The notes under the pieces are model-generated. The model had not been told where the DNA came from. It worked only from the letters and a program-made list of their open reading frames with translations, and ran no database searches. Shown piece by piece: positions 13,657 through 55,951 of a stretch of DNA of 64,000 nucleotides. Origin of the DNA: Phycisphaeraceae bacterium (GTDB lineage: Bacteria; Planctomycetota; Phycisphaerae; Phycisphaerales; Phycisphaeraceae); contig JAVKCD010000019.1 of assembly GCA_040222855.1 (NCBI GenBank), positions 230,912-294,911 of the forward strand, written 5' to 3'. Position numbers and translations under genes: made by a program. The stretch's first letter is position 1, and each line of letters starts with the position of its first letter.

Positions 13657-13709
13657 AGTCGGTCTGAATCGCTTTGACTCGCTTTTCATCATCAGGATCG
13701 GAGCACCCC

Positions 13710-33233: not shown

Positions 33234-33236
33234 GGA

Positions 33237-34586
33237 TCAGGGTTTGCGGATGTCAGCGGGGATGGGTTCGTCGGTGAAGATCGAGATGCTCTGGGTCTGC
33301 TGTCGTTCGGCTTCGGTGAGTGGTCGGAAGCCGGCTCGGTCCATGCCGCGTTGGACTTCGGGGTTGCGCTGGAAGAGTTCCCAGACGAAGCCGGTGCGGT
33401 GGTTTTCGACCATGAGGAGGGTGATGCCGATGTCGATGCCGATGACCTGCTCGTTGTACCAGTCGGTGTGGGGGTTGAAGGCATCGACGAAGCCGTAGGT
33501 GGTCCAGGATTTGGGGAAGCGATCTTTCATCTCGCGGAGGGCGGGGATGGTGGCATCGGGTGCCATGGGGATGGAGCCAGCGGGGGCGCAGGGGACGATG
33601 ACGCCATCGATGGGTCCGTCGTAGGGCGGGGCGCCGACGACGCGGTAGCCGTCGGGTCCGTCGGCGGCGGTGAGTCCCCACATGGTTTTGCTGTAGAGGG
33701 GGAAGCGGTCGGCGAGATCGACGACGGCTTGTTGCTGGGCGAGTGTGGCGAGGATGGAGTTGCGCCAGTAGTCGGCGTAGTCATCTCGTTTGTCGCGGAA
33801 GTCGTACCAGGCTTGTGAATACTGGTGGGTGAAGAGGGGCGGGCAGGAGAGGAAGGTTCGCCCGCCATAGGTGACGACGTATTTTCGTTCCCAGGCGTGC
33901 CAGGCTTGTTCGTCGAGGGGATGTGTTTTGGAGCCGAGTCCCAGGAGGTAGAGGATTTTTAGTTCGTTGTAGTCTTTCCAGTGGTGGGGTAGGAAGCCGG
34001 ACTCGGGTTTCCATCCCATGCTGAGGGTGGCCTGGCCATCGTGCATCCAGGGCCATTCGACGCGGTCGTAGATTTTCTGGGCGATTTCGGCGGCTTCGGT
34101 GTCGGCAAAGTAGGCCTTTGAGGTGAGGACGCCGGCGATGAGGAGGGCTGTGTCGATGGAGGAGAGCTCACACTCCCAGACGCGTTTGCCGGTCTCCATG
34201 CTGATGAAGTGGTAGTAGAAGCCGTGGACATTTTCGAGTTCATCGTGGACATAGCGGAGCGTGTTGAGGGTGCGGTCGTAGGCCTGGTCGTGTGAGACCC
34301 AACCGCGTTCGGCGGCGATGGTGTAGGCGGTGAGTCCGAAGCCGACGGATGCGATGCTGGCGACGTCGCCGGCGGCGGAGCCGTCGGCCATGGCGCGGTC
34401 GGGGACGAGTCCGGTGACGGGGTCGCCGGTGCGCCAGAAGAAGTCGAAGCTCCTGCGGCCGAGTTCTTCGAGGAAGGCGTCGTCGGCGGGGTCGATGGTG
34501 GGTTGAACGACGGCCGACACCGAGGTGACGGCGAGGGTGAGGATCATGAGCAGGCAGAGGGCGTTGCGGATCAAGGTGAACCTCAT
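33237..34586 (-). CDS. Secreted putative-glucoamylase-fold / GH144-like protein (candidate endo-beta-1,2-glucanase)
   Basis: Signal peptide from ATG 34584-34586. Motifs are FDFFWRTGDPVTGLVPDR, SIASVGFGLTAYTIAAERGW, HGFYYHFISMETGKRVWECELSSIDTALLIAGVL, PLFTHQYSQAWYDFR and YGFVDAFNP...VIGIDIGITLLMVENHRTG. The stop lies 3 nt from the GH94 start codon. Confidence 0.7.
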   Translation of the reverse strand: MRFTLIRNALCLLMILTLAVTSVSAVVQPTIDPADDAFLEELGRRSFDFFWRTGDPVTGLVPDRAMADGSAAGDVASIASVGFGLTAYTIAAERGWVSHDQAYDRTLNTLRYVHDELENVHGFYYHFISMETGKRVWECELSSIDTALLIAGVLTSKAYFADTEAAEIAQKIYDRVEWPWMHDGQATLSMGWKPESGFLPHHWKDYNELKILYLLGLGSKTHPLDEQAWHAWERKYVVTYGGRTFLSCPPLFTHQYSQAWYDFRDKRDDYADYWRNSILATLAQQQAVVDLADRFPLYSKTMWGLTAADGPDGYRVVGAPPYDGPIDGVIVPCAPAGSIPMAPDATIPALREMKDRFPKSWTTYGFVDAFNPHTDWYNEQVIGIDIGITLLMVENHRTGFVWELFQRNPEVQRGMDRAGFRPLTEAERQQTQSISIFTDEPIPADIRKP

Positions 34587-34596
34587 CTGTAGAAGG

Positions 34597-34610
34597 AGAA
34601 ACCGCTTACA
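34597..34610. promoter_or_regulatory. LacI-type operator candidate (site C, weak left half)
   Basis: AGAAACCGCTTACA lies 11 nt upstream of the GH144-like start codon. The right half-site GCTTACA is identical to sites A and B. Confidence 0.35.
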
Positions 34611-34651
34611 TCTAGAGACACATGGACAGAGCGATTGGTTGATGCGTTGAT

Positions 34652-35650
34652 TCAGGAGCAACCGCAGGTTTTTCGGGCGACGAAGCGAGTCGGGACGGAG
34701 GGGGTCCAGTCGTCATCGGGCGACTGTTTACGGAGTTGCATGAGGGCGGCCTGGACGGCTAGTTCGCCGAAGGCGCGCATGGGGACGTTGACGGTGCTGA
34801 GGTCGAGGTGTCGTGCCATGGGTTCGTCGTCGAAGCCGATGAGTTTGATGTCTTCGGGGACGCGGACGCCGGCGTGGCGGAGGGCGTCGAGGGCACCGAT
34901 GGCCATGCGGTCGTTGAGGGCGAAGATGGCGTCAGGCATGGGCTTTCCGGCTTCGAGTCGCTCGCTGACGGCGCGGTACCCGCTGTCTTCGCGGAAGGAG
35001 CCGTGCCAGAGGGCATCGGGTGGGAGTCGGATGTCGGCTTCTTTGGCGGCTTTTCGGCAGCCGAGGATGCGTTGGCGAGAGTCGGAGGAGTCGGAGGGTC
35101 CGGTGATGACGGCGACGGATTGGCAGTGGTGTTGCACGAGAAGGTGGCGCATGGCCTGGTAAGCGCCGGTGGCGTTGTCGATCTCGACGACGAGGCTGTC
35201 GCAGTGGTCTGCGGGTCGGTCCATGAGGACGACGGGGACGCGGGAGGTGTCAAGGTTTTCGAGTAGTTCGCCGGGGAGCTGGAGGTTCATGACGACGAGG
35301 GCATCGACGCGGCGTTCCATGACGTATTGGCGGACGAGTCGGACGCCGTCGGTCGGGCTGTGGCCGAAGGCGAAGACGGCTTCGTAGCCTTCGCGGGAGG
35401 CTTCTGCGGAGATGCCTTTGAGGACCTCGGCGAAGAACCCGCTGTCGAGGTCGGGGAAGATGACGCCCAGGGTGTTGGTGGCGTGGCTGGCGAGGGATCG
35501 GGCGGCGTAGCTGGGGGCGTAGTTGAGGTCGGCGATGGCTTTGAGGACGCGTTGTTTGGTGGCATCGGAGACGGGGGCGGTTCCGTTGAGGACACGGGAG
35601 ACGGTGGCGATGGAGACGCCGGCGCGTTTTCCGACCTGCTCGAGGCTCAT
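34652..35650 (-). CDS. LacI family transcriptional regulator
   Basis: MSLEQVGKRAGVSIATVSRVLNG...V....RV..A...L.Y HTH followed by a sugar-binding core. Confidence 0.9.
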   Translation of the reverse strand: MSLEQVGKRAGVSIATVSRVLNGTAPVSDATKQRVLKAIADLNYAPSYAARSLASHATNTLGVIFPDLDSGFFAEVLKGISAEASREGYEAVFAFGHSPTDGVRLVRQYVMERRVDALVVMNLQLPGELLENLDTSRVPVVLMDRPADHCDSLVVEIDNATGAYQAMRHLLVQHHCQSVAVITGPSDSSDSRQRILGCRKAAKEADIRLPPDALWHGSFREDSGYRAVSERLEAGKPMPDAIFALNDRMAIGALDALRHAGVRVPEDIKLIGFDDEPMARHLDLSTVNVPMRAFGELAVQAALMQLRKQSPDDDWTPSVPTRFVARKTCGCS

Positions 35651-35804: not shown

Positions 35805-36347
35805 TCAGGTGCCCGAGGGGTAGCGGAGGCGGACTCTGAGTCCCTGGCCCTGGAAGATGGCACCGGAGGCGTCGATGCGGAGGAGGGTGAAGCCGTCGAG
35901 CTGGTCGCCGGGGCGGAGGCGTTGGTTGTCGATGAGGACGATCCCCCCTCGGGCGTCGCGGAGGAGGGCCTGGAGTTTTCGGGTGGAGAGGAACTGGCGT
36001 GCGCGGTCTTCGGGTGTCTGGGTGGCGTTGTAGGTCTGGGGTCCTGGGGTCTGTTGGGCGGCTGGGTCGGTGAGGGCCGAGACGGCGAAGGGGTTGCGGG
36101 GCTGGTCGGTGTCGGGTTGCTGAATGCGACCGGCGACCCGGAGCAGTTCGGCGAGGGAGCCGATCGACTCGGTGAGGGTTGGCGTCGCTGGTGACGTGTT
36201 GGGTGAGGTGGGGGTGGCTGAGCTGAGGATCGAGATCGCTTCGGCGGGTTGGGGGTCGCTGGCTCCGCGGAGGACGAAGTGATCCAACCCGAGGGCGCTG
36301 ACGGCGAGTGTCATGACGGCGATGAGGATAGAGCGTTGTCGGGTCAT
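35805..36347 (-). CDS. Membrane-anchored GspC/PilP-like protein (last gene of the secretion/pilus operon)
   Basis: N-terminal TM (ILIAVMTLAVSALGL), a Pro/Thr-rich linker, and a C-terminal ...GGIVLIDNQRLRPGDQLDGFTLLRIDASGAIFQ... beta-domain pattern like the GspC-HR/PilP secretin-interacting domains. Its start overlaps the upstream stop by 4 nt. Confidence 0.5.
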   Translation of the reverse strand: MTRQRSILIAVMTLAVSALGLDHFVLRGASDPQPAEAISILSSATPTSPNTSPATPTLTESIGSLAELLRVAGRIQQPDTDQPRNPFAVSALTDPAAQQTPGPQTYNATQTPEDRARQFLSTRKLQALLRDARGGIVLIDNQRLRPGDQLDGFTLLRIDASGAIFQGQGLRVRLRYPSGT

Positions 36348-36955
36348 GGGGTGGCCTCCGGGTTGGTGGCCGTGATGAGGCCGGAGGCGATTCTGTCGGT
36401 TGGCGGGGTGGCGTACCAGGTCATGCCGAGGGTGAGGGTCATGGGGCTGTCGGATGCGGTGGGCGTGTCGCTGGCTGTGGAGAGGTTGAACTCGGTGATG
36501 CGTAGGTCGGGGAAGTCGGAGCCGAGGCGGTCGAAGAGCTTGCGGGCGTTGGTGTAGGTCGCGCTGGTTTGGGTCTGCAGGGGAACGATGACAAAACCAT
36601 CCTGCAGAGCTGGGTCGGCGGGTTCGATGCGTTCGGCGCGGTGGTCGAGTTGTTTGAGGAGATTGGCGAGGTCGCGGAGTCTTCGGTTGAGGGCGTCGGC
36701 GGTCAGGAGTTGGTTGGAGCCTTCCTGAGTCAGCAGCAGCAGGTCATCGCGTTGTTTTTCGACGCTGCGGAGTTCGGTCTGCGATGTGGCGAGGGCTGCT
36801 TCGGTTTCCTGTTGCTGTTGGCGGGCGATCTCTGCGGCGGTGTTGCTGAGGATGGACGAGATGACAAACCCGCCTGTGACGAGGATGGCCAGGAGGATGA
36901 CCGCGCCCAGGGCGTCGAGTTGCGAGATTTTGAGGGGTGGGTTGTGTTTGGTCAT
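36344..36955 (-). CDS. PilO/GspM-like bitopic membrane protein
   Basis: Short cytoplasmic N-terminus, one TM (LGAVILLAILVTGGFVISSIL), a coiled coil (EIARQQQQETEAALATSQTELRSVEKQRDDLLLL) and a C-terminal alpha/beta domain. The call rests on position and architecture only. Confidence 0.5.
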   Translation of the reverse strand: MTKHNPPLKISQLDALGAVILLAILVTGGFVISSILSNTAAEIARQQQQETEAALATSQTELRSVEKQRDDLLLLTQEGSNQLLTADALNRRLRDLANLLKQLDHRAERIEPADPALQDGFVIVPLQTQTSATYTNARKLFDRLGSDFPDLRITEFNLSTASDTPTASDSPMTLTLGMTWYATPPTDRIASGLITATNPEATP

Positions 36956-37530
36956 TGCTCGCCTCCGCGTTCTGCCATGAGCGCGAGGATTCGGAATCGG
37001 ACGCGTTCGTCATTGGGATCGAGGCGTCGTGATTCGTCGATCATCACGCGTTGGAAGAGGCCGGTTGCTTCGAGGCGTACGGCGTAGTCGGAGACCGAGG
37101 CGGTGTCGCTGGCGTTGCCTTCGAGGTCGATGCGGGCTTGTTGGAGCGGTTCGGTGGGTGAGGCTTCGGATGGTGTTGCCAGGCGCAGGGAGCGGAGGAC
37201 GATGAGATCGCCCTGGACGGCGGCTAGGGCGTCGAGGAGGAGGCCCCAGTTGGGGTGGTGCCGGATGATTCTCGCGCTGGCCGTCTGCTCGTGGAGGCGG
37301 GCGTGTTCGGCGCGGACGGTGATGATCTGGGCGTTGACCTTGGAGAGTTTTGACTGGAGGTTGGCGAGGGTGGCTCCCTGCTCGGGTTGTTGCTGGGAAG
37401 CCCAGACGACGCCTACGGTGGCGGCTGTGCCGGCGAGCGCGATGATGGTGATGGAGGTCCATCGCTGGAGCCTGCGGCGGAAGCGGCGTAGCTCGATTCG
37501 GTATTTCGGGATGAGGTTGCCGTTGCTCAT
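36952..37530 (-). CDS. PilN-like (fimbrial assembly) protein
   Basis: NLIPKYRIELRRFRRRLQRW followed by a TM and a coiled coil, the canonical PilN N-terminus. The ATG at 37528-37530 overlaps the pilM stop (ATGA). Confidence 0.6.
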   Translation of the reverse strand: MSNGNLIPKYRIELRRFRRRLQRWTSITIIALAGTAATVGVVWASQQQPEQGATLANLQSKLSKVNAQIITVRAEHARLHEQTASARIIRHHPNWGLLLDALAAVQGDLIVLRSLRLATPSEASPTEPLQQARIDLEGNASDTASVSDYAVRLEATGLFQRVMIDESRRLDPNDERVRFRILALMAERGGEQ

Positions 37531-38528
37531 GCGGCGGCCCTCCATCCGGATGCAGCCAGGGCGAAGGCGAGCTCGGTGCCGGGTTGCGGGTCGTTGGTGT
37601 TCTGGGAAATGTCGGCTTCGATGGTGCGTGCGAGGTGCTCGGCGACTTGCGGGTAGCGTGCTCCGCCGCCGGTGAGAATGATTCTCGGTCGATCATCCTG
37701 GCTGCCGAGACGGCTGACGTAGTTTTTGCAGACGGCGGTTTCTTCGGTGACGAGTCCGGCGTACTGCCTGATGGCTTTGGTCAGGGTGGGATCATCTTGC
37801 GTTGGGGTTTCGCTGGATTGAGTCTGCTTGAGTAGTTCGTGGACGGTGGCGAAGGGTTGTCCGGCGGTCTCGGCGACGGTGGCGAAGAGGGTTTCTAGGC
37901 CGGCGGGTTCGATGGTGCGTTCGTAGACCACGCTGCCTGAGAGGCAGGCGATGACGCGGCAGGCGCTCCAGCCGAGGTCGACCAAGAGGGTCAGGCCGCG
38001 CTCGGTGTTGTCGTTGACCAGGGTCGTGGCGAGCGCGAGGGCGGGGACTTCGATGCGCTGGGTGTCGAAACCGGCCTGGGTCATGCTTTCGATCAGCTTG
38101 TCTGCGTGCGCGTGTTCGAGCACGTAGGACATGATCTGCTTGCGGCCTTTGGCGCCTTCGGCTGGTTCAGCGCGGTGCAGGGCATACTCGAAGCCGGTGG
38201 GCTCGATGCGGTGAAGCCTTGACAGGGCCATCCGCGCGGCTTGTTCGGCGGCGACGGGGTCTGACGCTGAGGGGAGTTCGACGATCGAGCTGTGCAGGTG
38301 TTCGATGGGTGCGGCGAGGACGCATGATCGACCGTGGAAGCCACGGAGTGTCATCAGGCTATCGAGCTTGCGGTACCAGGTGGCATCGTCGGTGTGGTCG
38401 GGCCGTGTGATTGAGAGTGAGGCGGAGATGCGCGGGTTGGTCGCGCTGCCTGAGAGTTGGACGGCTTTCACCTGACGGGTGCCGAGGTCGAGGCCGATGG
38501 GTGATCGTCGTGAGAGGTGGAGGTTCAT
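37527..38528 (-). CDS. pilM: PilM-like actin-fold pilus/secretion assembly protein
   Basis: The IGLDLGTRQVKAVQL phosphate-1-like motif, a length of ~330 aa, and a position directly after gspF and before the pilN-like gene. Confidence 0.75.
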   Translation of the reverse strand: MNLHLSRRSPIGLDLGTRQVKAVQLSGSATNPRISASLSITRPDHTDDATWYRKLDSLMTLRGFHGRSCVLAAPIEHLHSSIVELPSASDPVAAEQAARMALSRLHRIEPTGFEYALHRAEPAEGAKGRKQIMSYVLEHAHADKLIESMTQAGFDTQRIEVPALALATTLVNDNTERGLTLLVDLGWSACRVIACLSGSVVYERTIEPAGLETLFATVAETAGQPFATVHELLKQTQSSETPTQDDPTLTKAIRQYAGLVTEETAVCKNYVSRLGSQDDRPRIILTGGGARYPQVAEHLARTIEADISQNTNDPQPGTELAFALAASGWRAAA

Positions 38529-39754
38529 CAGTTACCTCCTGCGCTGGCGGTGAGGTCGAACAGCGGGAGGAAGAGACTCACGGCGACGGCGCCGACGAGC
38601 AGGCCGATGAAGACGAGGACGGCGGGGCCGAGCATGTTAAGGACGGCTTTGAGAACGATCTCGTTGTCTTCGTCCATAAACTCGGCGACGGTGATCAGGA
38701 GTGTGTCGGTGGTGCCGGTCTCTTCGCCGTTCTTGAGGGCTTCGTAGAGCGAGACGGGGATGAGTTCGGTGCGGCCAAAGGATGTGCTCAGGGGTGATCC
38801 CTGGGCGGTGGCTTCTTCGGCGCGTTCGAGGAGGGCCTGGTAGTGATGGTTGCTGACGGTGGTTCGTGTGAGTCTTAGGGCGTCGAGGAGATCGACGTGG
38901 CTGGCGAGCAGGACGCCGAGGAGTCTCGCGATCCGAGCGCTGACGAAGCCTTGTGTGACGGTCTTGACCAGAGGGGCTCGGACCAAGAGGGTCTGGACGT
39001 GGCTGCGGCCGATGTCGGAGGCGAAGTAGCGGACGATCCCCGCCACGATCACCAGCAATGCGGGGACGATTCCCCACCAGTAGGCGGTGAAGAGTTCGCT
39101 GGAGACGATCATGGCTTTGGTGAGTGGCGGGAGCGGGACGTTCATGGTTTCAAAGAGGGTCGAAAACCTGGGCAGGACCACGCTGATGAGCATGGCGACC
39201 ATGCCGAAGCCGACGAAGAGGACCATGATGGGATAGGTCAGAGCGCCCTGGACCTGGCGGCGGAGGTGGAGTTGGTTGTGGGTGAGTGAGCCGAGGCGGG
39301 CGAACATGTCATCGAGTTTGCCTGAGCTTTCGCCAGCGGAGACGAGGCTGCAGGCGATGGCGTCGAAGTAGCGGGGGTGCTGCTCCATGGCTTCGGACAT
39401 CGGGATGCCTTCTTCGAGGCGTTCTCTGATCTTGACGAGCATGGCACGCCAGGCGGGATCGGTGGACTGTCGTTCGACGGCGTTGATGGCGGTAACCAGT
39501 GAAGCGCCGGACTTGAGAAGCACGTGGAGGTGTCGTGCGAAGGAGGCGACGAGTCGGAGCCGTTTGTTGGTAGAGACATACTGCCAGCCGGTCTTGCGCT
39601 TGGCGGTCTTTTTGCCGGCCTTGACCGGCTGGAGGTCGGTTGCGAAGAGGCCTTTGCGATGCAGGAGGTCAGCGGCCTGCATGGCGTCGTCGGCTTCGAT
39701 GATGTCGCTGACGACATGTCCGGAGGCGTTGAGGGCCTGGTAAGCGAGTTTCAT
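38528..39754 (-). CDS. gspF: Type II secretion system F family platform protein (GspF/PilC)
   Basis: Two T2SSF repeats (e.g. LLKSGASLVTAINAVERQ and LLASHVDLLDALRLT), three TM segments and a length of 408 aa. Confidence 0.9.
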   Translation of the reverse strand: MKLAYQALNASGHVVSDIIEADDAMQAADLLHRKGLFATDLQPVKAGKKTAKRKTGWQYVSTNKRLRLVASFARHLHVLLKSGASLVTAINAVERQSTDPAWRAMLVKIRERLEEGIPMSEAMEQHPRYFDAIACSLVSAGESSGKLDDMFARLGSLTHNQLHLRRQVQGALTYPIMVLFVGFGMVAMLISVVLPRFSTLFETMNVPLPPLTKAMIVSSELFTAYWWGIVPALLVIVAGIVRYFASDIGRSHVQTLLVRAPLVKTVTQGFVSARIARLLGVLLASHVDLLDALRLTRTTVSNHHYQALLERAEEATAQGSPLSTSFGRTELIPVSLYEALKNGEETGTTDTLLITVAEFMDEDNEIVLKAVLNMLGPAVLVFIGLLVGAVAVSLFLPLFDLTASAGGN

Positions 39755-41499
39755 GCGGCCCTCCGTTCCTGCTCGCCGGGAGACTGGGCGTCGAGCATGT
39801 CGTCCTGAGTGACGCGGAGGGCTTCTTCGAGGCTGGTTTGGCCTTCGACGGCGAGGCGGACGGCTTCATCGCGGAGGGTTTTTCCCCCGATTTCCCGCCA
39901 GGCTTCGCGGAGGACGTGGGTGGGTTCAGCGCGGTGGACCATGCGTCGGAGGGCGGGGACGATTTCCATGACTTCGTAGACGCCGAGGCGTCCTTTGAAG
40001 CCGGAGTTGTGGCAGCTCTCGCAGCCAGCGCCCATGTGGAAAGCGCGGCTCTTGTCGGGATCGAGCCCGGCGTCGCGGAGGACGTGGGGCTCGGGGTAGT
40101 AGCGGGTTTTGCAATCGGGACAGACGCGTCGTGCGAGGCGCTGGGCAACGACGCCATTGATCGCACCGGAGAGGAGGTAGGACTCGATGCCCATGTCGAG
40201 CAATCGGGAGACGGCGCCGGGCGCGTCGTTGGTGTGGAGGGTGGCGAGGACAAGGTGACCGGTGAGGGCGGCCTGAACGGCGACACGGGAGGTCTCGTCG
40301 TCGCGGATCTCACCGACCATGATGATGTCGGGGTCCTGTCGGAGAATACTGCGTAGGGCGCGTGCGAAGGTCATGCCGATCTGGGTGTGGACCTGGATCT
40401 GGTTGATGAGGTCGAGCTGGTATTCGACGGGGTCTTCGACGGTAACAAGGTTGGTCTCGGGGCTGCGGAGGAGTTCGAGGGCGGAATAGAGGGTCGTGGT
40501 CTTGCCGCTGCCGGTGGGACCGGTCACGAGGACGAGGCCGTGGGGCTGCTTGAGCATGCGTTTGAAGGCGTCGAGCTGTTCTTCCTGAAATCCGAGTTGT
40601 TCGAGACGGATGCGGAGATTTTCCTTGTCGAGGATTCGCATTACGAGCTTCTCGCCGAGGAGAGTCGGCATGCTGGACACACGGATATCGATCTCGCGGC
40701 GTTCGGCGACGATCCGGATTCGTCCTTCCTGGGGGAGTCGTTTCTCGGCGATGTCCATGGACGCCATGACCTTGATTCGTGAGGAGATGGCGGCGTGCAT
40801 GCCGGATGGCGGGCTCATGAGTTCGCGGAGCATGCCGTCGATGCGGTAGCGGATGCGTGTGCCTTTTTTCTCGGGCTCGACGTGGATGTCGCTGGCACCG
40901 TCGCGGATGGCGGTGAGGAGGGCGAGATTGACAAGGTTGATGATCGGGCTGCCGGTGGCCATCCGGTCGAGGTCGGTAACGGGGCCTTCATCGACGGCTT
41001 CCTGCTCAACGAGTGTGACGTCGGACTCGGCGAGTGAGGTGAGGAACTGGTCGACATTGACGTCGCCGGAGCTGTACTTGTCGATGAACTCGCGAATGTT
41101 GGCTTCGAGGGCGAGCACCGGGCGGACCTGGCAGCCGGTGATCTGGCGGATCCTGTCGATGGCTGGGAGAGAGTGCGGGTCGGCCATGGCGACGGTGAGG
41201 GTGCCGTGGACTTTGAACATCGGGATGGCGATGAGTCGTTCGCACTCTTCGACGCCAAGAAGCTCGAAGAGCTCGGGGTCGATCAGGCCGTGGCGGAGTT
41301 GGCAGCCGGGCATTCCCTGAACACGGGCGAGCGCGTTGATGAGGGTGTTGGCTTGGATGACGCCTTGTTCGACAAGCACTTCGCCGAGTTTTTTTCCGCC
41401 CGTCTGCCGGCGCAGCGCATCGGAGAGCTGCTGTTCGGAGAGGTGACCTCCGTCGAGCAGGACTTCGCCGATGCGCTTGGGTGGTCCTGTGTCACTCAC
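39751..41499 (-). CDS. gspE: Type II secretion / type IV pilus assembly ATPase (GspE/PilB family) with an N-terminal MshEN/T2SSE_N domain
   Basis: Walker A (GPTGSGKTTTLY), Asp box, Walker B, His box (TGHLVLATLHTND) and a tetracysteine cluster (CPDC...CESC). The N-terminus has RIGEVLLDGGHLSEQQLSDALRRQ / LGEVLVEQGVIQANTLINALARVQ repeats. Confidence 0.92.
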   Translation of the reverse strand: MSDTGPPKRIGEVLLDGGHLSEQQLSDALRRQTGGKKLGEVLVEQGVIQANTLINALARVQGMPGCQLRHGLIDPELFELLGVEECERLIAIPMFKVHGTLTVAMADPHSLPAIDRIRQITGCQVRPVLALEANIREFIDKYSSGDVNVDQFLTSLAESDVTLVEQEAVDEGPVTDLDRMATGSPIINLVNLALLTAIRDGASDIHVEPEKKGTRIRYRIDGMLRELMSPPSGMHAAISSRIKVMASMDIAEKRLPQEGRIRIVAERREIDIRVSSMPTLLGEKLVMRILDKENLRIRLEQLGFQEEQLDAFKRMLKQPHGLVLVTGPTGSGKTTTLYSALELLRSPETNLVTVEDPVEYQLDLINQIQVHTQIGMTFARALRSILRQDPDIIMVGEIRDDETSRVAVQAALTGHLVLATLHTNDAPGAVSRLLDMGIESYLLSGAINGVVAQRLARRVCPDCKTRYYPEPHVLRDAGLDPDKSRAFHMGAGCESCHNSGFKGRLGVYEVMEIVPALRRMVHRAEPTHVLREAWREIGGKTLRDEAVRLAVEGQTSLEEALRVTQDDMLDAQSPGEQERRAA

Positions 41500-41831
41500 A
41501 GGAAGCTCCTGGCGGCTGCGTTGACATCGACGTAGTGCTCGAACATCGAGTCGAGGTCGGTGAGGGTGAGGACTTCACGGATCAGGGCGTTGGCGGAGGC
41601 GAGCTTTAGGACGCGCCCGCTGGCGGACATTGACTCGGTGAGGTCGACGAGGGTTTCGAGGGCTTTGCTGTCGAGGAAGGGGACGGCGGTGAGGTCGACG
41701 ACCACGCGACCGAGACTGGATTTATTGAGGGGCTCGGCGGCTTTGCGGAGCGTCTCCCCTGCGTCGCCGGTGAGGGGTCCGTTCGGCGCCAGCACGGCGA
41801 CGGCCCCGACGTTGGTCTGAGCGATCTCCAT
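41496..41831 (-). CDS. STAS domain protein (anti-sigma-factor-antagonist fold)
   Basis: 111 aa with ...VVVDLTAVPFLDSKALETLVDL......LKLASANALIREVLTLTDLDSMFEHY, the canonical SpoIIAA/RsbV pattern including the DS(x) Ser position. Its stop overlaps the gspE start (ATGA). Confidence 0.85.
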   Translation of the reverse strand: MEIAQTNVGAVAVLAPNGPLTGDAGETLRKAAEPLNKSSLGRVVVDLTAVPFLDSKALETLVDLTESMSASGRVLKLASANALIREVLTLTDLDSMFEHYVDVNAAARSFL

Positions 41832-41843
41832 ACCTGGTCTCCT

Positions 41844-43313
41844 TTATCCCACGACCGCGGCGCCGACCACGGCGGGGAGGCTCAGGGTGAAGGTGCTGCC
41901 CTCGCCGGTAATCGAGGTGACGGTGATGTCCCCGCCATGGAGGCGTGCGATGTCCCGGGCGAGGCCCAGGCCGAGTCCGGTGCCGGTGATGCCCTTGGTG
42001 CGTGCATCGTCGGTGCGGAAGAAGCGATCGAAGATGCGCGGCAGGTTCTCTTCGCTGATACCGATGCCGGTGTCGACGACACGGACGGAGAGTTTGCCGT
42101 CGGCGACATCGGCTTCGACGGTGACGGTGCCAGACTCGGGTGTGTACTTGATGGCGTTGCCGACGAGGTTGTGGATGGCCATGAGGAGCTTGTCCTGATC
42201 GCCGGTGAGATTAGGAAGCCTTGGAGGGAGATCGAAGCGGAGGGTTTGCTTCTTGGATTCGGCCTGAGGTCGATGGTCCTTCTCGACCTGTTGGAGGATC
42301 TTTTCGAGGTGGACATCATCGCGGCGCAGGCTCATGGCACCGGCTTCGATCTCGGAAACCGAGAGCATGTCCTGGACGACCCGCTCGAGGCGGCCGGACT
42401 CGGTGTTGATGACGTTGAGGCACTCGCTGCGGGTTGCGGGGTCTTTGTCGCCGTGCTCGATCGCGGTGTCGATGTGCAGTCGGATGTTAGTCAGCGGGGT
42501 GCGTAGCTCGTGGGCGGCTTGGGCGAGGAAGGCGCTGTGGGCTTCCTGAGCGACGCGTTGCTGGGTGATGTCTTCGATGATGACGATGGCGGCTTCGTTG
42601 TCGGATCGTCGGGACGGGCGGGTGATAAAGCGGAGGACGCCGGTGCCGCCTTCTTCGCGCTGATCGACTTCCATGATGCCCCGGCTGTAGCCGCGACTGA
42701 GTGTTGCCCTGCGGGCGGCATCGAGTACGCCCTCGTAGGTGATCAACTCGGCCAGGGGTGTTCCGGTGCAGCCTTCGGCGTCTTTCTGTAGGAAGGCGGC
42801 GGCAGCGCCGTTGGCGTAGGTGACGCGGAGCTCATCGTTGATGAGGACCATCCCGCTTTCGATGGCTTCGCAGGCGGCACGGAGCGACCCGCCAGCGGCT
42901 TGGCGGCGGTCGGTTTGCTGCTGTGCCTCGTGAACGAGTTTGCCGCTGCGGAGTGCCTGGTACTCATCCAGGAGGCGGTTCCAGTTTTGCGCCTCGCGTC
43001 CAAAGGATTCGCCGAGTCGGAGTGTTTCGGTTTCGAGGTCATCGCCATCGAGGTCGGCGAGGGCTTTTCTCAGGAGTGCGGGGGCGAGGAGGTGCCTGCG
43101 TATGAGCAGAAGGCTCGTGGCTAAGCCCGCGAGTGCTAACCCGCCCAGGGCGGCGGGCATCCAGGCGCTGGTGCTGAACCAGCCCCAGGTGAGAGCGGCG
43201 ATCAGGACCAGCAAGCTGGCGATGGTGCTGATGATCGCAGCGGGCGGCTCGCCGGGCAGTAGCCAGCGTCCGAATAAATCTCCCAGGTTCTCTCGTCGGC
43301 CCTTGTGTGCCAC
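41844..43313 (-). CDS. Membrane sensor histidine kinase with a PAS domain
   Basis: Two N-terminal TMs, a PAS-like segment (IESGMVLINDELRVTYANGAAAAFL), the H-box AAHELRTPLT, the N-box LVGNAIKYT, and the G-boxes DTGIGI and GTGLGLGL. Confidence 0.9.
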   Translation of the reverse strand: MAHKGRRENLGDLFGRWLLPGEPPAAIISTIASLLVLIAALTWGWFSTSAWMPAALGGLALAGLATSLLLIRRHLLAPALLRKALADLDGDDLETETLRLGESFGREAQNWNRLLDEYQALRSGKLVHEAQQQTDRRQAAGGSLRAACEAIESGMVLINDELRVTYANGAAAAFLQKDAEGCTGTPLAELITYEGVLDAARRATLSRGYSRGIMEVDQREEGGTGVLRFITRPSRRSDNEAAIVIIEDITQQRVAQEAHSAFLAQAAHELRTPLTNIRLHIDTAIEHGDKDPATRSECLNVINTESGRLERVVQDMLSVSEIEAGAMSLRRDDVHLEKILQQVEKDHRPQAESKKQTLRFDLPPRLPNLTGDQDKLLMAIHNLVGNAIKYTPESGTVTVEADVADGKLSVRVVDTGIGISEENLPRIFDRFFRTDDARTKGITGTGLGLGLARDIARLHGGDITVTSITGEGSTFTLSLPAVVGAAVVG

Positions 43314-43547
43314 AGGGCATACCTCCTACAGGTCATGTCCTGAGCATCATCGACCCAAGTTCAAGGGTGCTTAATGGCCAGGCCAGTTATGCAGGACGAC
43401 TCGTAGAGGGAACCTGATCGAGAGAAAAGTTACAGGTGGACCTTAAGCGGTCAGGTTGAGCGGACGATCCTGAGCTAGCCGGGGGTAGGAAACTGCGAGT
43501 TGCAGTCCTTCCGGTGTGAAGTAGGGAACCGTTCGACTAGGAGCTAG

Positions 43548-43994
43548 ATGATGTTCAGGTACCGTGCGGGATTCAGTCTGATTGAACTGATTGTGGTGCT
43601 GGTGATTCTCGCGGTGATCGCGGCGATTGCGATCCCGAGGATGAGTCGAGGTGCGAACAACGCAGACATCACAGCGATGCAGGCTGACCTCGCGGTGCTG
43701 CGAGGAGCGATCGAGCTCTACCGTGTTGAGCACACCGGGTACCCGGTACTGGCGGACATCAAGTCTCAGCTCACGGGCAAGACGGACAAGGACGGGACGA
43801 TCAACACGTCGGGTGCTTATGGCCCATACATCGCGGTGATCCCGCCTCTGAAGACGGGAGCCAAGGCCGGCGAGGTTGATTTCGCGGCCCCGGCGGCGAT
43901 CCCGCCTGCGGCTGAGGTCGATGATGTCGGCTGGTTGTACGACGCGGCGTCGGGCTCGATCTGGGCGAATGACAGTACTCACTTCGATAAGTGA
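43548..43994 (+). CDS. gspG: Major pseudopilin (GspG-like) with a prepilin-type N-terminus
   Basis: AGGAG Shine-Dalgarno; FRYRAGFSLIELIVVLVILAVIAAIAIP...MQADLAVLRGAIELYRVEHTGYP. Confidence 0.85.
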   Translation: MMFRYRAGFSLIELIVVLVILAVIAAIAIPRMSRGANNADITAMQADLAVLRGAIELYRVEHTGYPVLADIKSQLTGKTDKDGTINTSGAYGPYIAVIPPLKTGAKAGEVDFAAPAAIPPAAEVDDVGWLYDAASGSIWANDSTHFDK

Positions 43995-44039
43995 TCCGGG
44001 CTTCCGGATCGCCTAACGGGGCGGACAGGGAGCGTAACC

Positions 44040-44531
44040 ATGGATGGTTTGACGGCCTCGATGCAGCGTGAGACCCGGAGTTCGCTCCGAGCCTTCACGC
44101 TCATCGAGGCCGTTTGCGTGCTGGTGATTATGGCGGCGCTGGTGGGTGTGGCTGCTCCACGGTACGCGGCGTCGCTGGAGCGGTATCGGTTGGATCTCGC
44201 GGCGCGGCGGATCGTGAGTGATCTGGCGTACGCCAAGACTCATGCACGCAGGACCAGCACCACCGTGAAGCTGACCTTTGATACGAGCACGGACCGGGTC
44301 CTGGGCACAGGCTTGCCTCAACCGGGCAAGCCAGGGGAGAGCTACAGCCTGTCGCTCGGAGATGATCCGTTTCTGGTGGGCTTCTCAGGGGTTGATCTGG
44401 GCGGGGACGTGGCGATTGTGTTCAATGGTTATGGGGACCCGGACTCGGGTGGTCAGATCAAGCTGATCGCGGGGAGCCGAGAGTTGATCATCGACGTGGA
44501 CCCCACGACGGGCCAGGGGGTAATCCAGTGA
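44040..44531 (+). CDS. Minor pseudopilin, GspH/FimT-like
   Basis: RAFTLIEAVCVLVIMAALVGVAAPRY...LDLAARRIVSDLAYAKTHA pattern of the GspH family. Confidence 0.7.
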   Translation: MDGLTASMQRETRSSLRAFTLIEAVCVLVIMAALVGVAAPRYAASLERYRLDLAARRIVSDLAYAKTHARRTSTTVKLTFDTSTDRVLGTGLPQPGKPGESYSLSLGDDPFLVGFSGVDLGGDVAIVFNGYGDPDSGGQIKLIAGSRELIIDVDPTTGQGVIQ

Positions 44532-44995
44532 GTTGTCGGTATCGTCGCGGACTGACGCTGATTGAGCTGATGCTGTCGTTGTCGATCGCCGGTCTGCTGG
44601 TGGCGGGGATGACGGCGTCGCTGACGTTGTCGATCGATGCTGCGGAGATGGCGACGATCGACTCGGCGGGTCCGGATCAGGCGGCGAGGGCGCTGGAACT
44701 GGTGCTGGCTGATCTTCAGCAGTCGATCCGGCTTGATGAGTATGGCAGCCAAGTATTCCTGATGACGCCTGATCGGACTGTGCCTGCGGACGGGTTGTCT
44801 GAGTCGGTGCTCTACCTCTGGTCGGGAACGGCTGGTGACTCACTGACGCGGGTCACCAACAACGGGACGACAGCGACGATCGCTGAGGACGTGAATCTGT
44901 TTGAGATCGAGATCGACACGCGGACGATCCCGGCCAAGGCGGTGACGGACACGGCCAACCCGCTGTCGTGGGGCTATTTCTTTACTGTTCGTTAG
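44528..44995 (+). CDS. Minor pseudopilin (GspJ/PulJ-like)
   Basis: RRGLTLIELMLSLSIAGLLVAGMTASL prepilin-type N-terminus; 4-nt overlap with the upstream gene. Confidence 0.65.
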   Translation: MSCRYRRGLTLIELMLSLSIAGLLVAGMTASLTLSIDAAEMATIDSAGPDQAARALELVLADLQQSIRLDEYGSQVFLMTPDRTVPADGLSESVLYLWSGTAGDSLTRVTNNGTTATIAEDVNLFEIEIDTRTIPAKAVTDTANPLSWGYFFTVR

Positions 44996-45003
44996 GGTCG
45001 AGG

Positions 45004-46176
45004 ATGAATACGCCAGCCAGCTTGGATGAGCGACGCGAGCCACGCCGTAGGCCTCGGGCGGGGCGAGGGTTCACGCTGGTGGAGACGATTCTGGCGGCGG
45101 TGATCGTGAGCCTGACGGTGGTGGCTGCGCTGTCGTCGGTGGCTGCGGTGGCTCGGACCGAGCGGATCGGTCTGGACTCGGCGCAGGGTCACTTCCTGGC
45201 TCAGTTGCTGATGTCTGAGGTTCTCGCTTGCCATTATTCGGACTTGAGCTTTGCTCCGGGGAGCTTCGGGCTGGGTGCGGGTGAGAGCCAGAGCGATCGG
45301 ACGACGCTCGATGATATTGATGACTACCACGGCCTAGTGGAGTCGCCGGTGACGTATGCCGACGGCACGGCGGTACCGGGTGCAGCGGGATGGAGCCGGC
45401 GTGTCTCGGTGACTCGGGTCAATGGGAGTACCTTGGGACTGAGCGGGAGTGACACGGGGTTGCGGAAGATCGTGGTGCAAGCGGTGTCGCCGTCGGGGGC
45501 GGTGACTGAGCTGCAAGCACTGATGAACCTCAACTCGAATCTCAGCGAGAGGGGGTTGTATGAGCGCACGGTGCCGGCGGTGGCTCGTGTCCGGGTCCGA
45601 TCGGGCGACGCGAACAAGCTGACGCTGGCTGCGGCGCTGCCGCTGCTGAACGAGCCGACTGCAACCACCAACCTGCTGAAGAACCCGGGATGGGAATCGG
45701 GTGCGAGCAACTGGTATTCGCCGGAGACTTTGCAGGCGTACTTCGACCTCAACGGGATCACGGTGTCGGGCGGGTTGTATCGGGAGGTTGATGCCGCGTG
45801 CGATCTTGAGATCAAGGACGATGGTGAAGAGCATAGCGGGGCCTTCTACCTGAAAACCAAGAGCAGGTCATGGAACGATACTGGGCCTGCCCAGGTGATT
45901 ACCGACGTGTTTCAGGTCGGGGTGACGTACTACACGGAGGTCTGGGCATCGACGGACGACACGCAACGGGTCTATATGGTGCTGCTCTATGGCGACGACA
46001 AAGGGGACTACCGGCTGGAGACATCACAAACGCGTGTGGTCGAGAAGACAGGCTGGAAACGGGTGACGGGCAGTTTTACGGTTCCGAGTATCACGGGGAG
46101 TCTGCGGTACGCGGTCTGGCGGGTTGAGACGACGCTTGACAAAGACATCTTGTTCGATGATGCGGTGCTGCGATGA
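45004..46176 (+). CDS. Minor pseudopilin fused to a C-terminal CBM4/9-like carbohydrate-binding module
   Basis: Start at ATG 45004. GRGFTLVETILAAVIVSLTVVAALSSV prepilin-type N-terminus with a GspI-like body. From ~aa 222 it reads NLLKNPGWESGASNWYS...GAFYLKTKSR...VGVTYYTEVWAS...GWKRVTGSFTVP...ILFDDAVLR, the typical CBM_4_9 sequence pattern. Confidence 0.7.
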   Translation: MNTPASLDERREPRRRPRAGRGFTLVETILAAVIVSLTVVAALSSVAAVARTERIGLDSAQGHFLAQLLMSEVLACHYSDLSFAPGSFGLGAGESQSDRTTLDDIDDYHGLVESPVTYADGTAVPGAAGWSRRVSVTRVNGSTLGLSGSDTGLRKIVVQAVSPSGAVTELQALMNLNSNLSERGLYERTVPAVARVRVRSGDANKLTLAAALPLLNEPTATTNLLKNPGWESGASNWYSPETLQAYFDLNGITVSGGLYREVDAACDLEIKDDGEEHSGAFYLKTKSRSWNDTGPAQVITDVFQVGVTYYTEVWASTDDTQRVYMVLLYGDDKGDYRLETSQTRVVEKTGWKRVTGSFTVPSITGSLRYAVWRVETTLDKDILFDDAVLR

Positions 46177-49052: not shown

Positions 49053-49451
49053 TCAGGCCGCGGCGGCGGCCGAGCCTTCTTCCAGCCCCAGGGTCTCGCG
49101 GACTGCGGCATCGAGTTCCGAGCCGCTGAGGGGTTTATCCAGCAGCGTGCGGATGTTGGTTGAGACCATCTCGCTGTGGGAGAGCCGGTGGCTCCGGGCC
49201 GTCAGCATGATGACCGGGGTCTCGGCGGTGGCCTCTTCCTGCGCTAAAGCAACAGCTAGCTCGAGCCCGCTCATCAGCGGCATCTGGTAATCCGAGACCA
49301 CCAGCGAGGGTCGCTCGGCACGGATCAGATCCAGGGCCTCTTTTCCGTTGAACGCGGTCAAGACCTCCAGCCCGAGCTGCTTGAGCCGGAAGGCCAGGAT
49401 CTTGGTGATGTGCCGCTCGTCATCAACGACAATGACCTTGTGTGAAGCCAC
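49053..49451 (-). CDS. Stand-alone response-regulator receiver (CheY-like)
   Basis: KVIVVDDE...LVVSDYQMPLMSGLEL...PVIMLTA...K, i.e. the acidic pocket, phospho-acceptor Asp, and conserved Thr/Lys positions. Confidence 0.88.
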   Translation of the reverse strand: MASHKVIVVDDERHITKILAFRLKQLGLEVLTAFNGKEALDLIRAERPSLVVSDYQMPLMSGLELAVALAQEEATAETPVIMLTARSHRLSHSEMVSTNIRTLLDKPLSGSELDAAVRETLGLEEGSAAAAA

Positions 49452-54006: not shown

Positions 54007-54021
54007 GAGGACAGTCTATTT

Positions 54022-54035
54022 TTTGATTAATCAAA
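54022..54035. promoter_or_regulatory. Perfect palindrome TTTGATTAATCAAA (operator candidate 1)
   Basis: Lies 16 nt upstream of the DtxR-family gene start. The same sequence recurs at 54141-54156. Confidence 0.55.
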
Positions 54036-54140
54036 GTCAAGCCTCGGACAAGTGTTCCTAGAATGGAAAAACCATGCCACGCCACGACGATCCGACTTGA
54101 TAAAATATGAAGCATGGGATATGGTTATCCAAACACTTGT

Positions 54141-54156
54141 TTTTGATTAATCAAAA
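54141..54156. promoter_or_regulatory. Perfect 16-bp palindrome TTTTGATTAATCAAAA (operator candidate 2)
   Basis: Lies immediately upstream of the lipoprotein-type start (ATG 54158) of the metal-binding protein. A possible TTGATA(54097-102)-17 bp-TATGGT(54120-125) promoter lies upstream of it. Confidence 0.55.
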
Positions 54157-54157
54157 T

Positions 54158-55947: not shown

Positions 55948-55951
55948 CACC

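Follow-up and report, generated by a model that had tools for sequence, protein, structure and literature searches.

The window, as the 64-kb stretch of DNA analysed is called throughout, contains eight minus-strand open reading frames between 35805 and 43313, confirmed at the coordinates first claimed for them and ordered PAS-histidine kinase (HK), STAS, PilB/MshE-type ATPase, PilC/GspF, PilM, PilN, PilO and PilP-like (Table 1). HK and STAS are separated by a 12-nt gap with AGGAGA inside; STAS and ATPase overlap by 4 nt (GTGA), ATPase and PilC at ATGA, PilC and PilM by 1 nt, and PilN/PilO and PilO/PilP at ATGA each. PilM and PilN overlap by 19 nt from the first PilN ATG and at ATGA if the second (37530) is used, the latter in agreement with orthologue gene calls. 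The same overlaps occur in independent gene calls of the related loci L081, L082, L084 and L088. The gene identities, order and tight start/stop overlaps reported in an earlier note on this DNA are borne out by open reading frame coordinates, domain matches and junction reading, its divergently encoded T2SS-like pilin block by the plus-strand G-H-I-J-K genes, and its PilMNO(P)-type platform by domain matches and orthologue profiles. The eight-gene operon is real and, judged by its sequence, probably encodes the type IV pilus-like machinery of a planctomycete in the Phycisphaerae.

Table 1 Features of the pilus-like locus and its signalling genes, with window coordinates and profile matches.
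Feature	Position	Strand	Evidence
PilP/GspC-HR/GspB-like periplasmic protein (secretin-contact domain)	35805-36347	-	T2SSB 7.7e-6, 25.9 bits, cutoff 28.4
PilO (GspM-like)	36344-36955	-	weak alone; GspM model 3e-5
PilN	36952-37530 (second ATG; 37545 from first ATG)	-	PF05137 26.3 bits, cutoff 22.8
PilM-like cytoplasmic actin-fold protein	37527-38528	-	TIGR01175 3e-8
PilC/GspF platform protein	38528-39754	-	T2SSF 1.5e-51
PilB/MshE-class assembly ATPase	39751-41499	-	T2SSE 6e-140; N-terminal MshEN 3e-19
STAS protein, 111 aa	41496-41831	-	PF01740 6e-12
Membrane-anchored PAS histidine kinase (HK), 489 aa	41844-43313	-	PAS_4 1e-6, HisKA 9e-15, HATPase_c 2e-30; two TM helices
GspG-like major pilin/pseudopilin, 148 aa, cysteine-free	43548-43994	+	N_methyl 3e-8; T2SSG weak, 0.054
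GspH/FimU-like minor pilin	44040-44531	+	GspH 9e-5, N_methyl; signal RA/FTLIE
Minor pilin, GspI/PilV position	44528-44995	+	N_methyl 1.3e-6; signal RG/LTLIE
Large minor pilin, GspJ/PilW position	44968-46176	+	N_methyl; signal RG/FTLVE
Large GspK/PilX-position pilin-like protein	46173-47498	+	weak GspK match NF037980, 0.0069
HD-GYP phosphodiesterase, 514 aa	47495-49039	-	HD_5 2e-39, HD 2e-23; directly follows REC
Single-domain CheY-like response regulator (REC), 132 aa	49053-49451	-	PF00072 2.7e-22

The ATPase, in which a CxxC...CxxC motif is readable, has an N-terminus that matches PilF, PilB and VcMshEN (5htl, 1.4e-12) and reaches 51.2 bits with the MshE-related c-di-GMP motif model NF053729 (cutoff 38). 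Its two tandem 24-residue half-sites (R9...Q32, then the second site) lie at the same residue numbers as in MshE; the binding motif is defined in PMC5013675. Half-motif 1 has His at position 11 and half-motif 2 a one-residue shift ahead of the final Gln; the signature is near-canonical, and because each half-motif departs at one position from both the strict and the relaxed pattern as published, c-di-GMP binding is predicted only. The PilB and GspE models score 603 and 586 bits with the ATPase, the GspF and PilC models 307 and 258 bits with the platform protein, all below their own equivalog cutoffs, so that model scores do not tell a pilus from a secretion pseudopilus. Among the smaller proteins, the PilM-like one groups with PilM_2-positive orthologues of L021, L082 and L084 (iterative HMM); the PilO orthologue profile finds PilO of M. 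xanthus (3jc8_O, 2.9e-20) and P. aeruginosa (5e-9), and that of the PilP-like protein finds PilP (3jc8_P, 0.0023), GspB (0.085) and GspC (0.12). In L009, L021, L033, L041, L055, L054, L056 and L059, members of the PilP-like family are flanked by PilO and a secretin.

In the divergent block, the GspG-like protein has the class III signal RAG/FSLIE, and the GspK/PilX-position protein, with orthologues in the equivalent place in L004-L007, L082 and L088, has a hydrophobic N-terminus that lacks Glu5. The GspJ/PilW-position pilin ends in a carbohydrate-binding module (CBM_4_9, 5e-10, residues 284-374), which suggests a filament able to bind glycans. The window is rich in genes of secreted CAZyme type.

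These parts would also fit type II secretion: a short pseudopilus of GspG-K subunits in the periplasm would drive folded exoproteins, e.g. the glycoside hydrolases encoded nearby, out through a secretin whose gene lies elsewhere, with PilM/N, PilO and PilP replacing GspL, GspM and GspC. We consider this possible, at perhaps one chance in four: homologues of E, F, G, H, I, J and K are present in tightly coupled operons, the pilin block is exactly G-H-I-J-K in content and order with a cysteine-free, GspG-like major subunit and a K-position protein devoid of Glu5, the best NCBIfam model of the platform protein is GspF, the PilO-like and last open reading frames match GspM and T2SSB (GspB/GspC-HR-like), PilT is absent from the window, and secreted CAZyme-type genes are many. 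However, PilM and PilN are separate genes in GspL's place; GspC (PDZ), GspL, GspN and GspD are all missing from the locus; PilO and PilP find their best matches in M. xanthus T4aP proteins; the PilB model fits the ATPase slightly better by score, and the ATPase has a PilB/MshE-type N-terminal domain of the c-di-GMP type; the CBM-bearing minor pilin is better suited to an exposed adhesive fibre; and the neighbouring glycan genes are a lineage-specific feature.

The T4aP machine of M. xanthus and Pseudomonas is among the closest known systems. It shares with the locus a PilB-class ATPase whose N-terminus is a GSPII/MshEN domain, as well as PilC and, as separate proteins, PilM, PilN, PilO and PilP; the best solved-structure matches of the window proteins are M. 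xanthus PilO, PilP and PilB. The locus differs from this system in lacking PilQ, PilT and PilD, in the GspG-K-like order of its pilin block, in ATPase and PilC scores below the equivalog cutoffs, and in its regulators, which are HK, a stand-alone REC, HD-GYP and STAS, not PilS/PilR. A sensor kinase gene also adjoins pilB/pilC in the myxobacterial loci retrieved; these kinases resemble PilS. To our knowledge, no HK, REC, HD-GYP or STAS genes are adjacent to the MSHA locus.

All four regulatory genes lie in the window, HK and STAS at the head of the operon, REC and HD-GYP apart from it, on the strand of the operon but 5.7 kb upstream, past the inverted pilin block. The earlier note's statement that a cognate response regulator is missing is therefore wrong, and the c-di-GMP layer, i.e., the MshEN domain of the ATPase and the HD-GYP enzyme, was overlooked. 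HK is a standard HisKA kinase, with the H-box (HELRTP) and the N, G1, F and G2 boxes readable, and REC, its probable partner, has an intact acidic pocket (DD10-11, D53, T84, K105). REC is 40-45% identical to the receiver encoded directly after HK in L021, L033 and L055, and the same position as in the window is also occupied in Mucisphaera L081. The HD-GYP enzyme, which probably starts at the ATG at 49039 given the 513-aa length of its L081 orthologue, has intact HDVGK and HHERYDGRGYP motifs and an uncharacterised, weakly GAF-like N-terminal region of ~340 aa; it is 38% identical to the L021 enzyme encoded between REC and STAS. In Pirellulales-type clusters, the orthologues of both window genes separate HK from STAS. 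Diguanylate cyclase genes are absent from the cluster.

Synteny was compared across 26 related loci with ATPase identities of 44% to 70%. The 111-aa STAS gene lies directly upstream of an MshEN-bearing ATPase gene in every one of them, HK is within the cluster in 24 (the exceptions, L010 and L020, are contig-truncated), and in all 14 type-A loci HK is upstream of STAS and HK-STAS-ATPase are contiguous. In a neighbour-joining tree of 90 PilB-like proteins, the ATPases linked to STAS fall into a single clade. In Pirellulales-type (type-B) loci the order is PilMNOP-secretin-HK-REC-HD-GYP-STAS-PilB-PilC, contiguous in L021, L033, L055, L085, L086 and L089. The layout of the window recurs identically in the complete genome of Mucisphaera sp. 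(L081; independent gene calls, Pfam matches); among type-A clusters, REC and HD-GYP were seen nearby in just four (window, L081, L002, L007), L009 having REC without HD-GYP and L041 no HD-GYP. In other type-A loci with sequence past PilP, PilP is followed by pilin genes or, in L009, by a secretin. Clearly, the block of pilins, HD-GYP and REC was relocated in the window lineage, splitting the signalling cassette. The LacI glycan regulon into which the operon was said to run adjoins it only in the window and in L081, where the block has moved; that this adjacency is meaningful is not supported.

This move and the lineage-specific LacI neighbour speak for a chance or recent local juxtaposition of functionally unlinked sensory and pilus genes. 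Against this stand the STAS-ATPase pairing in all loci across that identity range, the retention of HK apart from two truncated contigs, and a tight STAS family of thousands of members; juxtaposition by chance is effectively refuted by the synteny data and is left with a negligible probability. The HK-STAS-ATPase linkage, whose synteny the earlier note had proposed as its own test, is not chance, and the cassette is conserved across the phylum. No description of a conserved kinase-receiver-HD-GYP-STAS pilus cassette was found in the literature.

The STAS family is a Planctomycetota-wide tight group of 111-aa proteins; its profile retrieved 2665 clusters at 90% identity. Its best PDB match is TM1442 (68 bits, vs at least 142 bits among the 120 family members listed), and no solved structure of a member was found in this comparison. 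The AF2 model of the window protein (pLDDT 94.5) has SpoIIAA/RsbV-type anti-sigma antagonists as best Foldseek matches. D54 is invariant and S55, at the position of SpoIIAA Ser58, is shared by at least 90% of sequences; a C-terminal tail, [RK]SF[LA], is conserved within the family, and since [RK]SF persists even without an overlap between STAS and pilB, the constraint acts on the protein.

On the reading suggested by the earlier note, the machine would be novel and secretin-less, and the kinase would act directly on the ATPase through STAS, with no response regulator. The contiguity of the three genes in type-A loci, the conserved STAS phospho-site and the position of HK as the only GHKL ATPase-fold protein nearby favour this, as does the failure to find a secretin in the window (Pfam scans of all large ORFs, secretin HMM, tblastn) or in any of the 12 Phycisphaerae-type loci. 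Yet a REC with intact phospho-acceptor residues lies 5.7 kb upstream, and in type-B clusters the orthologous gene comes straight after that of the kinase; HK is of the standard H-box type, and we know of no HisKA kinase with an H-box that phosphorylates STAS serines. What STAS invariably adjoins is the ATPase; from the kinase it is separated by REC and HD-GYP in type-B clusters. The retained PilP-like secretin-contact domain further favours a secretin partner. Direct control of a secretin-less machine thus appears improbable. Within the 64-kb window the reported lack of a secretin and a prepilin peptidase (PilD) holds (PilT and a second ATPase were likewise not found by Pfam scans of all large ORFs and tblastn), but as a property of the system the missing secretin is not borne out: L009 and every type-B relative with the PilP-HK stretch on its contig encode one directly after the PilP-like gene. 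To cross the outer membrane, the filament probably uses a secretin whose gene lies in another part of the genome.

We therefore favour, with a probability of about 0.6, a single PilMNOP-based type IV filament machine (PilB/MshE-class ATPase, PilC platform, PilM-N-O-P alignment complex, five-gene G-H-I-J-K pilin set) with a dedicated four-protein signalling cassette (membrane PAS histidine kinase, stand-alone CheY-like receiver, HD-GYP c-di-GMP phosphodiesterase, 111-aa STAS) in which c-di-GMP would gate the ATPase via MshEN. The PAS domain of HK would sense a cytoplasmic or membrane cue, HK would phosphorylate REC, and REC would modulate the HD-GYP enzyme and so set the local c-di-GMP level; c-di-GMP on the MshEN domain would license pilin polymerisation, as in MshE and PilB. 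Overlapping stop and start codons may keep STAS production in step with that of the ATPase. Given its conserved Asp-Ser site, as used in partner-switching systems, STAS may act as an adaptor, switched by phosphorylation, with the ATPase or the HD-GYP enzyme as its binding partner.

RpfC/RpfG is a two-component system of HK and REC-HD-GYP tied to surface behaviour, and here too sensor kinase, receiver and HD-GYP output form one signalling unit; in the window, however, REC and HD-GYP are separate proteins, the enzyme has the long uncharacterised N-terminal region, and the unit lies inside a cluster of pilus genes. STAS proteins are known to control c-di-GMP enzymes (HsbA-HsbD, BgrV-BgrR, and STAS-like SiaC with SiaD; PMC8457831), and the partner switch HmpUVW is needed for hormogonium development and motility and is listed alongside T4P genes required for the same process (PMC6495340). 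The window STAS resembles these as a single-domain SpoIIAA-fold protein with a conserved Ser predicted to be phosphorylatable, its gene lying next to those of a c-di-GMP enzyme and a motility/adhesion apparatus. It differs in that the loci viewed, the window among them, all lack genes for an RsbW-type serine kinase and a PP2C phosphatase, in that the neighbouring enzyme is an HD-GYP phosphodiesterase and not a cyclase, and in its invariable coupling to a pilus ATPase gene and its own C-terminal tail.

A gene for a 111-aa STAS protein lies directly upstream of the gene for an MshEN-bearing ATPase in 26 of 26 loci, mapped by an ATPase scan of the genome collection, six look-ups of STAS homologues, and local tblastn/HMM searches (related loci compared with the window are numbered L001–L089; HK-STAS-PLAN-7 and HK-STAS-MYXO-34, which occur as isolate names, are codes for samples and say nothing on gene content). 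The ATPases linked in this way form one clade in a neighbour-joining tree of 90 PilB-like proteins, separate from the PilBs of myxobacteria, Nitrospirota, Omnitrophota, and Bacillota. Conservation of the kinase-STAS-ATPase linkage in relatives, proposed as a check in the earlier note, is confirmed, and a chance juxtaposition of sensory and pilus genes is excluded by the synteny data. The best relatives of the window (GC about 63%) are Phycisphaeraceae and Mucisphaera genomes (Planctomycetota); ATPase identity to L001–L007 is 65–70%. Two gene orders were found: type A, HK-STAS-PilB-PilC-PilM-N-O-P-pilins (the window, L001–L009, Mucisphaera L081, L082, L084 of the cultured strain ZRK34, and L088); type B, pilin-PilM-N-O-P-secretin-HK-REC-HD-GYP-STAS-PilB-PilC (L021, L033, L055, L085, L086, L087, and L089; in part L020, L041, L042, and L010). 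HK, PAS histidine kinase; REC, CheY-like receiver.

Of the earlier note, the observation is confirmed and the interpretation is borne out in part. All eight minus-strand ORFs described for the operon are present at the coordinates given there (ORF check and Pfam/NCBIfam), with the junctions originally described: a 12-nt gap containing AGGAGA between the kinase and STAS genes, then GTGA, ATGA, a 1-nt overlap, ATGA, ATGA, and ATGA. At the PilM/PilN overlap the second pilN ATG is used, in agreement with the gene calls of orthologues. The kinase has two transmembrane segments and PAS, HisKA, and HATPase_c domains (Pfam), and is followed by the STAS-domain protein, a T2SSE ATPase with an MshEN N-terminal domain (Pfam/NCBIfam), a platform protein (T2SSF, 1.5e-51), a PilM-like protein (TIGR01175, 3e-8), and a PilN scoring above the Pfam cutoff. 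Taken alone, the PilO ORF is weakly PilO/GspM-like (GspM 3e-5, 23.7 bits vs a cutoff of 60) and the PilP-position ORF has a T2SSB match below threshold. As an alignment of 15 orthologues, PilO matches Myxococcus xanthus PilO (PDB 3jc8_O, 2.9e-20) and Pseudomonas aeruginosa PilO (5e-9); 19 orthologues of the PilP-position gene match M. xanthus PilP (0.0023), then GspB and the HR domains of GspC. When built iteratively from the window proteins, HMMs pick up the genes of relatives at the PilM, PilN, PilO, and PilP positions, Pfam-positive ones included, and in nine relatives the PilP-position gene lies between pilO and a secretin gene. The PilN-, PilO-, and PilP-like nature of the small downstream ORFs, on which the earlier note had made its reading depend, thus stands on iterative HMMs, profile matches to PDB, and gene order, the putative PilP being the weakest of the three assignments.

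Location of features discussed in the text (window coordinates except for L037).
Feature	Position	Strand	Remarks
PAS histidine kinase	41844-43313	-	first gene of the operon
STAS protein	41496-41831	-
PilB/MshE-type ATPase	39751-41499	-
PilP-like protein	35805-36347	-	last ORF of the operon
J-position (fourth) minor pilin	44968-46176	+	CBM_4_9 carbohydrate-binding module
HD-GYP protein	47495-49039	-	starts 13 nt after REC; HD_5 2e-39
REC, 132-aa receiver	49053-49451	-	PF00072 2.7e-22; acidic pocket, D53, T84, and K105 intact
LacI regulator, PF10091 'glucoamylase'-family hydrolase, SOGP/GH94-type beta-1,2-oligoglucan phosphorylase	29835-35650	-	154-nt gap downstream of the operon
Three pilin-like N_methyl proteins	5831-6763 (-), 13674-14456 (+), 26570-27391 (-)		one with DUF1559
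Metal-uptake locus	53344-58272		DtxR-family repressor with FeoA domain, ZnuA, ABC ATPase, two ABC-3 permeases
First ABC-3 permease	55952-57343		fused to Fe_dep_repr_C dimerisation domain
Possible STAS-PilB fusion ORF, 698 aa	L037, 1604-3700	+	3.7-kb contig; a 511-aa ORF precedes

Five pilin-type proteins, bearing class III signal peptides, are encoded divergently on the plus strand (43548-47498) in the order G-H-I-J-K, in accordance with the pseudopilins reported originally; scores are GspH 9e-5, GspG 0.054, and GspK 0.0069. Glu5 is missing from the protein at the K position. PilC and a PilM/N/O/P alignment complex, as in type IVa systems, are encoded in the window; further likenesses to type IVa pili (T4aP) are the split PilM/PilN, the best structural matches of PilO and PilP, which are in Myxococcus T4aP, and the PilB/MshE-type N-domain of the ATPase. 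A type II secretion system (T2SS) would account for the G-H-I-J-K order, the major subunit, which is GspG-like and has no cysteines, the platform protein, whose best model is GspF, and the lack of a PilT gene nearby, but the G-H-I-J-K set does not discriminate between T2SS and pilus, since T4aP minor pilins are homologous, and of the GspD/GspC/GspL/GspM set typical of T2SS no GspL, PDZ-GspC, or Secretin match was found in the window; this reading is rather unlikely. The ATPase scores below cutoff on both models, the PilB model being the best (TIGR02538, 603 bits, cutoff 675.65; GspE, 586 bits, cutoff 630.25). A T4aP-like surface filament is preferred, with a probability of roughly 0.6.

The carbohydrate-binding module on the J-position pilin, together with Laminin_G_3 (lectin-fold) proteins beside the pilin blocks of four relatives (L082, L084, L085, and L089), suggests that such filaments may bind glycans. 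The three pilin-like N_methyl proteins encoded elsewhere in the window could be substrates or passengers of a type IV filament machine; their N-terminus is near-identical among them (29 residues, not shown), and each adjoins GH5, GH30, dockerin, or PEP-CTERM genes. Opposite the major pilin gene, a 179-aa minus-strand ORF (43443-43982) is probably a shadow ORF, given its low GC3 (0.59 vs about 0.8 in real genes) and the lack of a Pfam match.

The absence of a secretin, as first noted, holds for the window and the Phycisphaerae-type loci, and does not extend to L009 and the type-B clusters, which encode one after PilP. A secretin HMM found no PilQ in the 64-kb window or in 12 Phycisphaerae-type loci; built from the secretins of relatives, it found none in the window, L001–L007, L081, L082, L084, and L088, and a gene directly after the PilP-like gene in L009, in L021, L033, L041, L055, and L085, and in others. 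The class Phycisphaerae is not secretin-free, since L042 and L089, from MAGs labelled Phycisphaerales, have type-B clusters with a secretin, and type A and type B may be paralogous systems coexisting in one genome. That the PilP-like domain for secretin contact has been kept speaks for a secretin partner whose gene lies elsewhere in the genome. No PilT, PilD, second T2SSE-type ATPase, or peptidase A24 was found among the window ORFs, which confirms the lack of a prepilin peptidase in the window; this result covers the window, and PilT and PilD genes are often unlinked.

The claim that the operon has no cognate response regulator is incorrect: a receiver with all residues of its phosphorylation site is encoded in the window and is orthologous to the REC of type-B clusters, as follows from its intact sequence, type-B synteny, and a relocation of the block in the window. 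The window REC and HD-GYP proteins are 38–45% identical to the products of the genes that separate HK and STAS in type-B clusters. HK and REC genes are neighbours in those clusters and 5.7 kb apart in the window; compared with L002 and L007, the block of pilins, HD-GYP, and REC is inverted and relocated upstream of the kinase in the window and in L081. In L002, L007, and L081 the REC-HD-GYP pair lies against the pilin block at its 3' end. In the window the K-position pilin gene (+) meets the HD-GYP gene (-) tail to tail, their stop codons overlapping by 4 nt (47495-47498), and this abutment of pilin block and HD-GYP is retained in the same three relatives. Since the block was moved upstream of the kinase, the operon abuts the LacI/PF10091/SOGP set; this adjacency, pointed out in the earlier note, is not borne out as meaningful, being confined to the window and L081 and absent from the other type-A loci. 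With the H-box HELRTP and the N, G1, F, and G2 boxes present in the kinase and a phospho-acceptor aspartate in the receiver encoded with it, HK and REC are predicted to form a two-component system. The HD-GYP protein, with intact motifs HDVGK (residue 388) and HHERYDGRGYP (about residue 441), has the HD and HHExxDGxGYP signatures of a putative c-di-GMP phosphodiesterase. A consensus scan of 34.5–50 kb, uninformative for this phylum, gave no promoter-like sites (0) and terminator-like sites at chance level. Rfam at relaxed thresholds gave no match in the divergent intergenic region, a c-di-GMP riboswitch included.

Regulation of type IV filament machines usually acts on the ATPase, via c-di-GMP or accessory proteins that vary by clade. 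The N-terminus of the window ATPase scores above cutoff on the NCBIfam model of an MshE-related c-di-GMP motif (NF053729, 51.2 bits, cutoff 38) and matches the c-di-GMP-binding GSPII domains of Thermus thermophilus PilF and of M. xanthus and Geobacter PilB, as well as Vibrio cholerae MshEN (PDB 5htl, 1.4e-12). The published receptor consists of two tandem 24-residue motifs, RLGxx(L/V/I)(L/V/I)xxG(L/V/I)(L/V/I)xxxxLxxxLxxQ, and MshE and PilB are already known to be gated by c-di-GMP (PMC5013675). Two putative half-sites are recognisable (R9–Q32 and K37–Q61), and neither the strict nor the relaxed MshEN regular expression matches; the MshEN call was kept from the HMM with these deviations flagged, and c-di-GMP binding by the ATPase is something we infer only, since each half-site differs in one position from the motif as published. 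Given the MshEN-type N-terminus together with the HD-GYP enzyme, c-di-GMP would be the most economical link from the sensory genes to the motor.

An AF2 model of the STAS protein (41-sequence alignment, pLDDT 94.5) superposes on anti-sigma-factor antagonists, among them TM1081, SpoIIAA (SpoIIAB-bound), and RsbV (RsbW-bound) (Foldseek; TM-scores 0.80–0.87 for almost all of the twelve best chains). Across two alignments, of 19 and 41 members, Asp54 never varies and at least 90% of sequences have Ser55; the pair aligns with the SpoIIAA phosphorylation site, Asp57-Ser58. By this RsbV/SpoIIAA pattern, a phosphorylatable-type serine after a conserved aspartate, the protein is a predicted STAS antagonist. 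Its C-terminal tail, A-V-[RK]-S-F-[LA], is conserved and is retained in type-B clusters with a STAS-pilB spacing of 18–125 nt, which argues for a constraint at the protein level beyond the overlapping GTGA start of pilB in type A. No RsbW-type kinase or PP2C phosphatase was seen in any locus viewed, and no strong HATPase_c_2-only protein or SpoIIE/PP2C domain in the window or the gene calls of L081, L082, L084–L086, L088, and L089. A profile search returned 2665 clusters at 90% identity (E ≤ 1e-8); among the members listed nearly all are 111 aa long and the few named by organism are from Planctomycetes or Phycisphaerales. Identity of the window STAS protein is 99% to a Phycisphaeraceae MAG protein and 71% to a protein of a complete Mucisphaera sp. 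genome. PDB holds no solved structure for any member; the Planctopirus STAS protein 3t6o was rejected as one (36.6 bits vs at least 142 bits for the 120 members listed). Large multi-STAS proteins in a search of representative sequences were likewise rejected as STAS-ATPase fusions, being unrelated SpoIIE or HATPase_c_2 fusions, and because of them the counts of that search overstate the family below about 1e-30. In locus L037 a degenerate STAS-like N-terminus (family HMM 35.5 bits, no Asp of the Asp-Ser site) is in frame with MshEN and T2SSE; this ORF reflects either a natural fusion of STAS and PilB or misassembly, and, if natural, would fit direct binding and be suggestive of STAS-ATPase contact.

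To our knowledge, no gating of the motor by a STAS protein has been described for any T4P or T2SS, and the full-text literature search gave no description of a STAS gene fixed, phylum-wide, to a pilus ATPase gene with HK, REC, and HD-GYP. Control of c-di-GMP cyclases by STAS proteins, as on or off switches, has precedents in HsbA with HsbD, BgrV with BgrR, and the STAS-like SiaC with SiaD (PMC8457831), and in Nostoc the HmpUVW partner switch is needed, as are T4P genes, for hormogonium development and motility (PMC6495340). In a bolder reading than the T4aP-like filament alone, the dedicated STAS protein would accompany the PilB/MshE-class motor throughout the phylum Planctomycetota as an obligate partner, a partner-switch-type protein gating the type IV filament ATPase directly and integrating kinase, receiver, and c-di-GMP input. 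The Phycisphaerae version would in addition have lost the cluster-encoded secretin and carry a G-K filament tipped with a carbohydrate-binding module, which would make possible a secretin-independent periplasmic endopilus capturing or handling glycans in the enlarged planctomycetal periplasm. That the STAS protein gates the motor directly and that the Phycisphaerae type is such an endopilus, both together, is quite improbable.

In two classes of Planctomycetota the motor gene is firmly tied to one compact cassette, made up of PAS kinase, CheY-like receiver, HD-GYP enzyme, and STAS protein, and the STAS family alone has thousands of members. The cassette offers a testable wiring diagram for when planctomycetes build pili. 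Its STAS proteins form a subfamily that was not described in the literature searched. Planctomycetes are environmentally abundant polysaccharide degraders, and the module-bearing minor pilin and the lack of a local secretin in Phycisphaerae bear on glycan binding and uptake by these bacteria.

Third-codon-position GC skew on the plus strand lies between +0.6 and +0.8 in every gene from about 14.4 to 36 kb, regardless of gene strand; it jumps from -0.69 to +0.63 across 12.4–14.4 kb and decays gradually to about -0.6 by 62–63 kb (11000–63700). The polarity thus changes twice within 50 kb, and there is no DnaA-box cluster. The sole Rfam match in the whole window at gathering thresholds is a tRNA (4443-4516), and the metal-uptake locus with its fused permease is listed in the table.
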